Shown here: positions 21,102 through 44,604 of the stretch, in pieces
Layout of the letters: every line of letters begins with the position of its first letter
Position numbering within the stretch: position 1 is the first letter of the stretch
Made by a program: the position numbers and the translations under genes
DNA from: Malacoraja senta
Lineage: Eukaryota
Direction: 5' to 3'
DNA length: 64,000 nucleotides
NCBI GenBank assembly: GCA_038087875.1
Contig: CM075988.1
Coordinates: 21,950,001-22,014,000, forward strand
The notes under the pieces: generated by a model
The model's input: the letters and a program-made list of their open reading frames with translations, nothing else
The model's database searches: none
Told to the model about the DNA's origin: nothing

Positions 21102-21171
21102 ATGGCTTTAATTCTATCTGCACTCATCCTGGGCTTATTTCTTCAATGTGCACCAACCTATTCCCAGTCAA
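21102..21171 (+). CDS. Exon 1 of predicted GPI-anchored mucin-like gene: signal peptide MALILSALILGLFLQCAPTYSQS
   Basis: ATG in good context (gaaATGG), hydrophobic core followed by small polar residues, then consensus donor A|GTAAGT at 21172 (phase 1). Confidence 0.8.
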
Positions 21172-23193
21172 GTAAGTCAATGTTCAATCTCATCACGGGC
21201 GCAACCTGTTCTTTTATACAGCCTTTAGCTTTAAGCTTACAGAATTGCTTTAAAATTATTTTAGTCAGCAGGGTTTCCATTTAAGATCGTGAAATGTTGT
21301 TGGGAGTGTTTTGGGTATGGTTGCAAATCCACGTTGTTTTTGCATGAAGCTTTATTAATGTTTGGAAACTGAGGCGCAACAGGTTTGGCAACACAACTTG
21401 TACATATGTGGATGGGTATATGGAGATCCCTCTCGGTTCTCTCTCCCCTGACTCTCACTCTGAAGAAGGGTCTCGAGCCGAACTGTCACTTGGCCATGTT
21501 CTCCAGGGATGCCGCCTGACCTTCTGAGTTACTCCAGCACTTTGTGTCCTTTTGTGAAAACCTGCACCTGCAGTTCCTTGTTTCTACATCCTTTCTCTTT
21601 CTAAAGAGTTGTCTTAGATTGTTGAAACACTTGGCATGATGGAGCACCTCAGTCCTGGCGACAACGAACGATCCAATCCCATCCTGTGATTTACTCCAGC
21701 ATTGTGTGTCTATCTTTGGGCAGAGACACTTCTGCCATGAGCTAGAAGTGTCTATTCCTTCAAGTGGCATTCCTTCAGGTTGGAGAGGAACTTGGAATGG
21801 GAACGGAATTTAATTTAGTTTAGTTTATGGTCACGTGTTTATAACCATTACATATTCTTTATCTACCTTGACTCAGATTTACCCAGGGAAGTTTCCCAAT
21901 GCTCGGTCTCGGTTTTTGGCAAAGTTTTAAATGTTTCCCTTTGATTATGTTCCCTTTAAAGATTTTTTTTAACTGTTGGGGAACTACAGTTGAACATTGG
22001 GGAACTACTTTCAAACATATGACGGGAGACGAGAAATGGCTGATGTTTAAAGAATTCATATATCAGTTCCTAGAAATATATATTTCCCGATAGGGGGCCA
22101 TTATCAACAAGTGTTCATTGCTGGGTGTTGAGGGAATTAGAGGACATAGGGCTAGTGGAGGAAAGTGGTATTGGGAAAGGAATTACAGTGGGTTCAAGGG
22201 AAAAGCACAAAGTGCGGGAGTAATTCAATGGGTCTGAAAGCATCCGAAGAGGGAATGGCCAGCCAACGTTTCATAGAAACATACAAAATAGGTGCAGGAG
22301 TAGGTCATTCGGCCCGTTGAGCCAGCACTGCCATTCAATATGATCATGGCTGATCATCCAAACCCAGTTCCTCCTTTCCTGCTTTCTCCCCATATCCCTT
22401 ATGTCCGTTAGCCCCAAGAGCTACGTAAATCTAACTCTCTCTTGAATACAGGTCAGGTCGGGACCCTTCTTCCAGACTGATTGTAGGAGGTGGGAGAAGG
22501 CTTGGAAAAGATAGGTGGGGGCGGGAGAAAGCCTGGCAAACGATAGGGAAATACAGGTATGGGTGGGGTCGATTAGCAGCTGGGTGGAATTCATGACAAA
22601 CGCTGGTGGTGAAAATGGAGACAAAAGAGTGATCAAGTGTTGGCTGTGTTGGGGATTACATGGGCAATAAAGATAGAATAGTGACAGTGTATGGGGTGTT
22701 TGCTGGTCGGCGCAGACCCGGTGGGCCGAGGGGCCTGTTTCTGCACTGTATCTCGAAAGTCTGAAGTTTAAAGGCTGGTGAAGTCAGACAGTATTTGGTG
22801 AATGTCTAGGCTATAATAGAATCACAGTCCTCTGAATAATCAAATCCCTATGGCCCACCCTGGTACGCACTCATCCCACCCCACCTTCCCCATCCACCTA
22901 CATCCCTCCGCAGGCTTCACATTTCCCTCTTCCCTCCTAATCTCACAACCGTTTGCCACATTTTCATCTCCGGTATAGATACAAAGGTATAGGAGCTTGA
23001 AAACTGTAACATCCAGGTTCTGCAGCAGTTTTATCCCAACAACCATCAGACTAACTATCTATCTTCTATCTTCTATCTATCTATCTATATATCTATATCA
23101 ATATCTATCTATAATTACTAAAAGTCTTGTCTTGTTTGGACGTCTGTCTGTCTGCGTGCATGCGTGTGAGTGAGCTCAAGGGATAAGTATGTG

Positions 23194-24392
23194 ATTAGTG
23201 TGTGTGGGGGGGGTTAGTGTGTGTGGGGGTTAGTGTGTGTGGGGGTTAGTGTGTGTGGGGGTTAGTGTGTGGGGGGGGTTAGTGTGTGTGGGGTTAGTGT
23301 GTGGGGGGTTAGTGTGTGTGGGGTTAGTGTGTGTGGGGTTAGTGTGTGTGTGGGGGTAGTGTGTGTGGGGGGGTAGTGTGTGTGGGGGGGTAGTGTGTGT
23401 GGGGGGGTAGTGTGTGTGGGGGGTTAGTGTGTGGGGGGTTAGTGTGTGTGGGGTTAGTGTGTGTGGGGGGTTAGTGTGGGGGGTTAGTGTGTGTGTGGGG
23501 GTAGTGTGTGTGGGGGGGTAGTGTGTGTGGGGTTAGTGTGTGTGGGGGGTTAGTGTGGGGGGGTAGTGTGTGTGGGGTTAGTGTGTGTGGGGGGTTAGTG
23601 TGGGGGGGGTAGTGTGTGTGGGGGGTTAGTGTGTGTGGGGGGGTAGTGTGTGTGGGGGGGTAGTGTGTGTGGGGGGGTAGTGTGTGTGGGGGGTTAGTGT
23701 GTGTGGGGTTAGTGTGTGTGGGGGGTTAGTGTGGGGGGGTAGTGTGTGTGGGGTTAGTGTGTGTGGGGGGGTAGTGTGGGGGGGGGGTAGTCTGTGTGTG
23801 GGGGGTTAGTGTGGGGGTGGTAGTGTGTGTGGGGTTAGTCTGTGTGGGGGGGTAGTTTGTGGCGGGTTAGTGTGTGTGTGGGGGGGGGGTTAGTGTGTGG
23901 GGTTAGTGTGTGTGTGTGTGGGGGGGGGTAGTGTGTGTGTGTGTGTGGGGGGGGTAGTGTGTGTGTTGGGGGGGGTAGTGTGTGTGGGGGGGTTAGTGTG
24001 TGTGGGGGGGTTAGTGTGTGTGGGGGGGGGTTAGTGTGTGTGGGGGGGGGGTAGTGTGTGTGGGGGGGGGTAGTGTGTGTGTTGGGGGGTTAGTGTGTGT
24101 GTGTGTGTGTGGGGGGGGTAGTGTGTGTGGGGGGGTAGTGTGTGTGGGGGGGTTAGTGTGTGTGTGTGTGTGTGTTTGTGGGGAGGGGGTAGTGTGTGTG
24201 GGGGGGGGGGTAGTGTGTGTGTTGGGGGGTTAGTGTGTGTGTGTGTGTGTGTGTGGGGGGGAGGGGGGTAGTGTGTGTGTTGGGGGGTTAGTGTGTGTGT
24301 GTGTGTGTGGGGGGGAGGGGGGTAGTGTGTGTGGGGGGGTTAGTGTGTGTGTGTGTGGGGGGGGGGGGGTAGTGTGTGTGGGGGGGTTAGTG
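23194..24392 (+). repeat. G/T-rich minisatellite (GTGTGTG(G)nT(T)A)n
   Basis: ~1.2 kb of variable units with G-runs of 4-10 nt. Confidence 0.95.
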
Positions 24393-24742
24393 TCCAGATA
24401 CGACCTTGGTAAGGCCATCAAAAAGGCCAAAAGGGACTTCTGCTCCAAGCTGGAGGATGAGACGGATGTTCGGCAACTGTGGCGGGGCTTGAATGCAATC
24501 ACCTCTTACAAGGTGAAATCAGCAAGCAGCTCAAACAACAGCGAAGCATCACTCCCTGACGAGTCAATGCGTTTTACGCACGCTTTGATAGGGAGAACAC
24601 TGATGTGTCTTCCCAAGCCCCCATTCGCCGTGATGGTATTTCTGTCACAGTCACAGAGGCCGACGTCAGAAGATCCTTCAGGGGGGTGAACCCTCGGAAA
24701 GCGCCTGGACCTGATGGTATACCCGGTCGTGTTCTAAAAAGG
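24393..24742 (+). mobile_element. Rex1/Babar-like LINE ORF2 internal fragment
   Basis: YDLGKAIKKAKRDF..KLE and [25 protein letters not shown]. Confidence 0.75.
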
Positions 24743-24908
24743 TGTGTGTGTGCGTGTGCGTGCGTGCGTGCGTGCGTGCGTGCGTGCGTGCGTGCGTGCG
24801 TGCGTGCGTGCGTGCGTGCGTGCGTGCGTGCGTGCGTGCGTGCGTGCGTGCGTGCGTGCGTGCGTGCGTGCGTGTGTGTGTGTGTGTGTGTGTACGTGCG
24901 TGCGTGTG
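24743..24908 (+). repeat. (GTGC)n/(GT)n microsatellite
   Basis: Direct inspection. Confidence 0.97.
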
Positions 24909-43380: not shown

Positions 43381-43431
43381 CGCCCACTACGCCCACTACG
43401 ACCATGACCACGAAATCCACCACTCCAATGG
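43381..43431 (+). CDS. Microexon 9 (51 nt): APTTPTTTMTTKSTTPM
   Basis: tgtgtttatacAG acceptor, G|GTAAGA donor, phase 1-1. Confidence 0.75.
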
Positions 43432-43654
43432 GTAAGATCACAGGAAGTGCTAGTACTTTCATGCCATTGTATGTGTTTTTCTGTAGCCTCTGCTCATTGC
43501 TACACTCCAAGAATTGCCATGACAAACAGTACGAAATGCTTGTCTTCAGTCTGAAGAAGGGTCTCGACCCGAAACATGTCACCCGTTCCTTCTCTCCAGA
43601 GATGCTGCCTGTCCCGCCGAGTTACTCCAGCGTTTTGTGTCCCTCTTCGGTGTA

Positions 43655-44297
43655 AAGAAAGACAGCGGGGAAACAGGCCCCCCTCACTGACCAGCCATCA
43701 CCCTGTACACAAACACTACCCTGCACACTAGGGACAATTTTACAATTTTTACCGAAGCCAATTAACCTACAAACATGTACGTCTTTTGAGTGTGAGAGGA
43801 AACTGGAGCACCCAGAGAAGACCCACACGGTCACAGGGAGGTGGACACAAAATGCTGGAATAACTCAGAGGCTGAGGCAGCATCTCTGGAGAGAAGGAAT
43901 GGGCGACGTTTCGGGTCGAGACGCTTCTTCAGACTGATGTCTTCAGATAGCCCTTGCCTTCTCGCTCCATCCCCTTCCCTTCCGAGTTCTCCCACTAGTC
44001 CTAGTGTCTCCGACTACATTCTATCTTTGTCCCTCCCCCTCTCCTGACAACAGTCTGAAGAAGGGTCTCGACCCGAAACGTCGCCCATTCCTTCTCTCCA
44101 GAGATGCTGCCTGTCCCGCTGAGTTACTCCAGCATTTTTTATCTACCTTCGATTTAAACCAGCATCTGCATAAGCATCTTTCTTGCACGGTCACAGGGAA
44201 AACGTACAAACTCCGCACAGACAGCTCCCAGAGTCAGGATCGAACCCGCGTCTCTGGCGCTGTGAGGCAGCAACTCTACCGCTGCGCCACCATGCCG
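43655..44297 (-). mobile_element. tRNA-derived SINE interrupted by an inverted Penelope-type repeat pair (~43841-44185)
   Basis: SINE head at ~44230-44296 and body at ~43660-43840; CACGGTCACAGGGA duplicated on both sides of the insert; hammerhead core at 44055(+) and ~43905-43935(-). Confidence 0.65.
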
Positions 44298-44431
44298 CTT
44301 GCTACCCAAGGGACTCCAAGTTTGAATTTACCATCACACTTGCTTATATTGTGCTCAATAGGACAATGCTATATTTGAAATGTATTCAAACTAAAAAAAC
44401 TCATCATGTAATGAATCGTTTTGTCTTTTAG

Positions 44432-44604
44432 TTAATATCAACACGAGGCAATCGATGAGGACCACCATCTACATGAGTACGACAACCAGCACCACGAGAA
44501 GAACAACAGTCACAACTCAAAACTCTGCACCTGGCATTAGCTCCAAGCCACTGCAAGCCTTTGTCTGTATGCTCCTGCTCCTCGTCACTGTGCCAGGGTT
44601 ATAA
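44432..44604 (+). CDS. Terminal exon 10: VNINTRQSMRTTIYMSTTTSTTRRTTVTTQNSAPGISSKPLQAFVCMLLLLVTVPGL* (Thr-rich stalk + GPI-type signal)
   Basis: ttttgtcttttAG acceptor in phase 1; small-residue N-S-A site, polar spacer, hydrophobic tail directly followed by TAA. Confidence 0.8.

Follow-up and report, generated by a model that had tools for sequence, protein, structure and literature searches.

Mucins arise repeatedly, and those that carry a glycosylphosphatidylinositol (GPI) anchor but no folded domain are usually without a traceable ancestor. CD24 and CD52 are of this kind: each combines a signal peptide, an O-glycosylated peptide and a GPI signal with no globular domain, and their mature peptides are very short and are not known to be built from an exon array. 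Here we describe a predicted ten-exon gene with an array of microexons in a 64,000-nucleotide (nt) stretch of the genome of the skate Malacoraja senta (the window, C12:21950001-22014000) and compare it with the closest described systems. Mouse Plet1 is GPI-anchored (PMC4848516). In chicken Muc13 one exon corresponds to one repeat of the domain in which proline, threonine and serine abound (PTS), and control of its length by alternative splicing has been proposed (PMC1552070). The Schistosoma mucin SmPoMuc has a short mucin exon within a kb-scale tandem repeat of variable copy number, and its introns are more homogeneous than its exons, which has been read as selection (PMC2576457). Finally, the term "mucinization" describes how a non-mucin secreted precursor becomes a mucin by gaining Thr/Ser repeats in variable copy number (PMC9417175).

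The gene in the window adjoins an intact PLET1-like gene, and comparison of the two shows the predicted window gene to be a tandem duplicate of a skate PLET1-like gene that lost its whole domain and amplified a single microexon. The intact paralogue (C12:21933829-21946813, five exons, 193 aa) lies directly upstream of the window, and about 25 kb separate this ancestor from the window gene. It encodes a signal peptide, a domain of about 110 residues (end of exon 1 plus exons 2 and 3), one Thr microexon and a last exon shared with the window gene. A first-pass annotation of the window had proposed ten exons, eight of them phase 1-1 microexons, joined across GT..AG introns into 594 nt coding for 197 aa. 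We rebuilt the model by script from the window letters at the proposed exon positions and obtained exactly this open reading frame (ORF): all nine introns are GT..AG, the eight internal exons are all phase 1-1, and these measure 33, 42 (five exons), 57 and 51 nt. The features of the two genes are as follows.

21017..21022, forward strand: TATA-like TTTAAA box, 80 nt 5' of the ATG, present in the window gene and in both upstream copies of exon 1; putative promoter element
21102..21171, forward strand: coding part of exon 1, signal peptide, 70 nt, donor GTAAGT; 90-nt in-frame deletion relative to the 160-nt exon of the paralogue, donor kept
21172..27358, forward strand: intron 1, collinear with intron 1 of the paralogue to 22673; domain exons 2 and 3 absent (blastn with word size 7, tblastn, family hidden Markov model (HMM) over six frames)
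27258..43659, forward strand: tandem genomic array carrying the microexons, long pairs of units 85-98% identical (self-blastn)
27359..27391, forward strand: microexon 1, 33 nt, phase 1-1 (script rebuild and self-blastn, as for microexons 2, 4, 5 and 8)
28261..28302, forward strand: microexon 2, 42 nt
30552..30593, forward strand: microexon 3, 42 nt; the unplaced contig C5813 holds one extra 42-nt copy adjoining it
33033..33074, forward strand: microexon 4, 42 nt
35762..35803, forward strand: microexon 5, 42 nt
38038..38079, forward strand: microexon 6, 42 nt; acceptor tract with a 5-nt deletion, AG retained
39178..39234, forward strand: microexon 7, 57 nt, with a 15-nt gain inside the exon
43381..43431, forward strand: microexon 8, 51 nt
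44432..44604, forward strand: terminal exon, 173 nt with the stop; Thr stalk, putative omega site N171-S172-A173, short polar spacer, 17-residue hydrophobic tail
44609..44614, forward strand: first AATAAA 3' of the stop, with further AATAAA at 44801 and 45193
C12:21933829-988, 21939423-603, 21942052-107, 21943398-433 and 21946665-813: the five exons of the paralogue

Residues 23-170 of the window product (148 residues) contain 62 Thr and 20 Met, consist to 59% of Pro, Thr and Ser arranged in 14-aa repeats, as is typical of PTS-rich tandem repeats of mucins, and hold no N-glycosylation sequon. Hydropathy analysis found hydrophobic stretches at both termini. GPI-anchored proteins have an N-terminal signal peptide, small residues at omega, omega+1 and omega+2, a polar spacer and a terminal hydrophobic tail. 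The window product fits this rule and, judged by its sequence, its hydropathy and the tails of the family, ends in the hydrophobic tail with no cytoplasmic part. Its predicted anatomy, by homology and by rule, is that of a signal peptide, a Thr stalk and a GPI-type tail, which supports what the first-pass annotation had put forward. The TATA-like box, the ATG context, the hydrophobic signal peptide, the strong donor, the GPI-type tail and the poly(A) signal are all intact, and a probable-RNA contig from a relative starts at 21037, near the TATA-like box.

A copy of exon 10 (90% identical) lies about 3 kb upstream of the window and two copies of exon 1 lie 16-22 kb upstream, to which window exon 1 is identical at 59/66 and 61/66 nt. 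The microexon of the paralogue (36 nt, phase 1-1) has an acceptor flank 83-87% identical to the flanks in the array, and this microexon, the last exon and the AATAAA of the paralogue are all intact. The flanks of the two genes are 92-95% identical on the 3' side and 81-85% upstream, and the last 84 nt of the terminal exon (27 codons and the stop) match at 84/84 positions, which suggests that their 3' ends may have been homogenised by gene conversion. The GPI-type tail is also identical to that of Leucoraja at 26/27 aa. Searched against the PLET1-like family profile (12,952 six-frame segments), exons 1 and 10 matched with E values of 1.5e-3 and 7e-7, and tblastn likewise tied both to this family. 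The resemblance of the predicted gene to the PLET1-like family is real homology and not a chance ORF. By the same sequence comparisons the window gene descends from the family yet is not a canonical member, while the upstream paralogue is. The first-pass annotation had recognised no orthologue and had taken the protein to be lineage-specific. This is not supported: the gene is derived by tandem duplication from a PLET1-like gene that has a Reeler domain, and its signal peptide, microexon, last exon and GPI tail are inherited. At the same locus there is a third long exon-1 copy (C12:21928470-21928629) with intact frame and donor, for which no further exons of its own were found; it could serve the paralogue as an alternative first exon or be what a partial duplication left.

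The domain was removed without trace. Exon 1 measures 70 nt as against 160 nt in the paralogue, the in-frame deletion of 90 nt starting right after the signal peptide, and a 459-nt contig of sequencing run X23 covers 20829-21287, including the deletion junction, with 0 differences. Since X23 may be the source sample, this match speaks more against an assembly error than for a second individual. Domain exons 2 and 3 left no remnant in the window gene detectable by blastn, tblastn or the family profile over six frames, in agreement with the annotation's view that the product has no globular domain. There is no N within intron 1 (21172..27358), and exon 2 of the paralogue was found once in the genome search (3 candidates scored). 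Loss of exons 2 and 3 keeps the frame because together they run from phase 1 to phase 1. Three runs of relatives break at the deletion point: the matches of runs X1 and X3 stop at about 21168, and that of run X14 starts at 21172 with 30 unaligned letters, consistent with a long exon 1 in those animals. All length changes of the window gene are frame-neutral (90, 9, 15 and 6 nt). Intron 1 also contains a GT-rich variable number tandem repeat (VNTR) at 23200-24393 (period 17/32, about 70 copies) and, after it, a GTGC microsatellite at 24742-24906.

The microexons lie at acceptor-to-acceptor distances of 902, 2291, 2481, 2729, 2276, 1140 and 4203 nt, and the array has grown by genomic duplications of 0.9-4.2 kb in which the duplicated units always include the exon. 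Every stalk repeat has its own symmetric exon, carried by a tandem genomic unit whose copy number varies. The unplaced contig C5813 (1-26118) carries the array at 99.6-99.9% identity with an extra unit of about 2.9 kb, that is nine microexons against eight on C12, which bears out the earlier proposal that protein length is set by kb-scale exon duplication. C5813 diverges from C12 at window position 25176, and exon 1 is missing from the 40 kb of it that we examined; it may be allelic, recently duplicated or misassembled. An inverted internal duplicate was also seen in this contig (26200-27200 = 143465-144465). Other skate models that we saw have 1-2 microexons per gene, compared with 8-9 here. 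In Leucoraja, a single 11-aa unit distinguishes RefSeq isoforms of the domain-bearing relative, which would give exon skipping indirect support, and two microexon units stand in frame in a Logan-derived protein of the Leucoraja cluster. The annotation had also contrasted exon length changes that keep frame with arbitrary indels in the introns. The counts agree with it (15 and 6 nt among exons 3-9; intron gaps of 15, 4, 29, 5, 1 and 2 nt), but the events are few and codon-sized slippage favours multiples of 3, so that the contrast is a weak argument.

Are the microexons under selection? In seven copies we counted 22 changes at the 39 sites of the last 13 codons, compared with 66 at 443 sites of the flanking introns, a 3.8-fold excess (p 1.5e-6); the 33-nt first microexon was left out of this test for its short flank homology, and the intron columns counted were these 443. 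Even against the fastest flank the microexon rate stood out (p 5.7e-4), and the worst 39-site intron window held 13 changes. There are at least 16 amino-acid changes among the microexons, and the residues stay within an alphabet rich in Thr, Pro, Ser and Met. These counts suggest that the microexons may be seen by selection. At the intron substitution rate, neutral expectation gives P=0.55 for no hit in the AG/GT and P=0.85 for no stop in 22 exon changes.

The comparison shows that the gene lost its whole domain by two changes that keep the frame, namely the 90-nt deletion that follows the signal peptide in exon 1 and the loss of exons 2 and 3, and that a single phase 1-1 microexon was multiplied with its flanking intron to 8-9 copies, probably by unequal crossing-over. 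Transcription would start from the inherited promoter and splicing would join exon 1 to exon 2 and so on to exon 10. The product would enter the endoplasmic reticulum, be GPI-anchored at about N171 and be densely O-glycosylated on some 60 Thr, so as to form a bottle-brush of about 150 residues on an epithelial surface. An extended mucin measures 0.25 nm per residue; such a brush would reach about 35 nm if extended, with about 3.5 nm added per microexon. It would act not as a folded ligand but as a glycocalyx barrier, a lubricant or a glycan decoy. Chromosomes would differ in the length of the brush through the copy number of the unit, and length might also vary within an animal by exon skipping, which is possible because all internal exons are symmetric. 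On balance we consider it fairly probable that the window gene is a functional domain-less GPI mucin with dense O-glycosylation. More tentative, and in our view doubtful as a whole, is the wider proposal of a CD24/CD52-style GPI mucin born by subtraction, through duplication, domain excision and the amplification and fast diversification of one symmetric microexon, in which both the copy number of the allele and combinatorial skipping (up to 2^8-2^9 in-frame forms) would determine how long the brush is and how its glycans are spaced.

Several observations weigh against a functional mucin. The sequencing runs listed (24 rows, 22 with small shares of 0.09-0.11) included none of RNA from this organism. 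In two runs of relatives that are probably RNA, the match to exon 1 ends at about 21168, short of the donor at 21171, and among the four runs aligned no alignment spanned exon 1 and the microexons together. Synonymous sites are accelerated as well (mean pS 0.16, pN 0.22, in a count with 329 intron columns), and the four youngest copies taken alone give 4/39 against 19/443, which is not significant (p 0.11). Slippage in runs of ACC/ACT Thr codons, or homogenisation of the introns, could be the source of the exon acceleration. The 100% identity of the GPI tail to that of the paralogue may reflect gene conversion rather than constraint, and the signal peptide has changed at three positions otherwise kept in relatives (S3, P6 and L9 of the paralogue). 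Three protein searches returned no domain-less relative; only the search with the tail as query could find one, and it is lossy (it missed P0012). We also considered intact splice sites as proof of function and rejected them, as they are expected under neutrality (P 0.55). The first-pass annotation had counted them, with the symmetric phases, as support. Both are indeed observed, but shared splice sites and phase are not independent evidence because the microexons are copies of one ancestral exon spread in kb-scale duplications.

Three other explanations have to be weighed. It could be that the deletion in exon 1 killed the gene and that the array is a neutral tandem duplication seeded by an intron rich in short and long interspersed elements (SINE/LINE), with nothing functional made. 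The lack of expression data for the window gene, the high neutral probabilities for intact splice sites (0.55) and for no stop (0.85), and a locus prone to duplication, as the orphan exon-1 copy at C12:21928470 testifies, all fit a decaying duplicate. However, a dead exon should diverge like the introns, yet the microexons changed 3.8-fold faster; every length change (90, 9, 15 and 6 nt) is frame-neutral; the duplicated units always hold the exon; and the domain has gone wholly, with no decaying remnant. We regard decay as unlikely. Could the array instead belong to the upstream gene? Exon 3 of the Reeler-bearing paralogue ends in phase 1 and might be spliced to the array and exon 10, about 35 kb downstream, to give a PLET1-like protein with a long stalk; the short exon 1 would in that case be either a relic or a start of minor use. 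RefSeq models of Amblyraja (isoforms X14, X15 and X16) and Leucoraja (isoforms X1/X2) do combine a single set of domain exons with several last exons, but they may be merges of near-identical tandem genes. The paralogue owns an intact microexon, last exon and AATAAA, and the read-through would have to skip all of these, two retroelements and the strong, intact exon 1 of the window gene. We regard such a cassette as unlikely too.

The third explanation is that the assembly collapsed at the GT-rich VNTR of intron 1 (23.2-24.9 kb) and joined an orphan short exon 1 to the array, hiding a domain-bearing 5' half. Other scars are present in the window, such as an 8.1-kb near-perfect duplicate across an N gap, the match of C5813 ends at window 25176 with no exon 1 in the 40 kb fetched, and we saw no read or contig across intron 1. 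Nevertheless, domain exon 2 occurs once in the assembly; exon 3 of the paralogue lies 1.3 kb before its microexon, and C12 and C5813 share 2.2 kb at this place without exon 3; intron 1 is free of N, and both its ends are collinear with the paralogue. We hold an artefact of this sort to be very improbable, and the domain-less GPI mucin is the reading that we prefer.

What was the domain that was lost? Exon 2 of the paralogue matches the proteins of Leucoraja LOC129712313 and Amblyraja LOC116991281 at 85-86%. With the Amblyraja protein as query we obtained 35 representatives at E<=0.001. Of 20 relatives looked up, six bear the name PLET1 or PLET1-like (Narcine, Pristis, Chelonia, Pelodiscus, Gavialis and Pleurodeles); of the other 14, 13 are uncharacterised or named after their composition (skate, sharks, ray, chimaera, coelacanth, amphibians and lizard) and one has no name. 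Stegostoma, with Narcine and Pristis, is also among the proteins annotated as "placenta-expressed transcript 1 protein-like"; such names are automatic annotation of non-mammals. Pfam Reeler was detected at E<=0.01 in 12 of 33 relatives scanned (the 35 representatives minus 3, plus P0011), nine of them above the family cut-off. The Pfam scan of the two skate proteins themselves gave no Reeler match, and that of five single exons of the window gene and paralogues gave no family in any. The assignment of the fold rests on the relatives, the ESM Atlas and a structure model. In the ESM Atlas the protein was placed with Reeler by features (0.93) and with a PLET1-like cluster by structure (template modelling score, TM, 0.56). 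The AlphaFold model of the Amblyraja protein has a predicted local distance difference test (pLDDT) score mostly >90 over residues 31-130, and PDB ranks 1-8 are the F-spondin reeler domain (E 7e-6). Invariant residues of the Reeler-fold domain are C26, Y52, V54, W79, C86 and W101 (P0003 numbering). Sequences and model together show the PLET1-like genes to be a jawed-vertebrate family with a predicted Reeler fold that includes chondrichthyans, amphibians and reptiles. A 2007 paper had presented Plet1 as mammal-specific and without evident motifs (PMC1821012). Our literature search for a link between PLET1 and Reeler found no paper, although automatic annotation already reflects this link.

The relatives are diverse (P0027, P0034, P0018-P0021): one amphibian protein has two Reeler domains, another protein a Ser/Thr stretch before the domain, and several shark proteins have long repeated stalks, known from protein sequence alone. 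Amblyraja LOC116991281 has at least 16 annotated isoforms, and the three seen (P0003, P0009 and P0010) have different last exons, which suggests that this skate also has a tandem cluster; none of the three protein searches returned isoforms X1-X13. Window exon 10 matches the last exons of Amblyraja X14 and X15 equally, at 19/29, so no single cassette was matched. SDHD (C12:25.52 Mb), an RPE65/BCO-family gene (C12:26.5 Mb) and VPS26 are on the same contig as the window gene, SDHD and the BCO-like gene at 3.5-4.5 Mb from it, and the PTPS match is on C25. The presence of SDHD, RPE65/BCO and VPS26 on one contig fits the human 11q23-25 block.

The surroundings of the gene contain the following elements.

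10876-16543, reverse strand: near full-length L1-type element with an ORF1-like frame (15473-16543), an endonuclease frame (13918-14676) and a 1013-aa reverse-transcriptase frame (10876-13917), one stop separating
4684-8427, forward strand: broken retroelement with a reverse-transcriptase frame (Pfam scan of selected frames)
C12:22059264-22059539, reverse strand: 45 kb beyond the window, final exon of a Ly6/uPAR-type gene, with a hydrophobic tail (Pfam scan)
C12:22087306-22103738, reverse strand: VPS26 gene (Pfam scan)

Further frames of the retroelement at 4684-8427 are presumably DIRS-type. The Ly6/uPAR-type gene is probably another GPI-anchored surface gene nearby, to judge from its hydrophobic tail. 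Among 56 selected frames (52 flanking, 4 in the window), the Pfam scan found only the Ly6-type exon, VPS26 and retroelements. Two duplications are probably false and due to assembly: a direct one of 8.1 kb (45272-53388 / 53589-61698, 99.7% identical) that flanks a 200-N gap, and 8368-10456 = 15901-17990 (99.9%), beside the gap 8168-8367.

How, then, does this gene compare with known systems? Our literature search on PLET1 in skates and on elasmobranch GPI mucins found no paper within its coverage, which left out subscription journals and supplements. Deletion of a domain together with amplification of a microexon, in a duplicate of a PLET1-like gene, appears to be undescribed, each ingredient being known. 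As ancestor and derived gene stand side by side, each step can be read, from duplication through domain loss and microexon amplification to exon-focused divergence, and if expressed the gene would make it possible to test, on one example, whether a mucin can be born when a domain is deleted and whether the number of exons controls the length of a stalk. With the PLET1-like proteins (the PLET1/C11orf34 family), an intact member of which it adjoins, it has a homologous signal peptide, stalk of Thr residues, last exon and GPI-type tail in common; it differs from them in having neither the Reeler-fold domain with all its invariant residues nor N-glycan sequons. CD24 and CD52 resemble the product in predicted working only, and all searches point to the PLET1-like family instead. 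As in chicken Muc13, one PTS repeat corresponds to one exon, but Muc13 belongs to an unrelated family and keeps SEA, transmembrane and cytoplasmic parts, whereas the window gene has no folded domain and a GPI-type tail. In mucinization, repeats were gained in proline-rich precursors of the SCPP locus, while here whole units of exon and intron were duplicated after gene duplication and domain deletion. The array itself resembles that of SmPoMuc, with a short mucin exon per kb-scale unit, introns alike and exons differing, although SmPoMuc is a multigene family of a parasite, its exons measure 27 nt, its repeats number up to about 20 and other, unique exons are present as well; no homology with it is expected.

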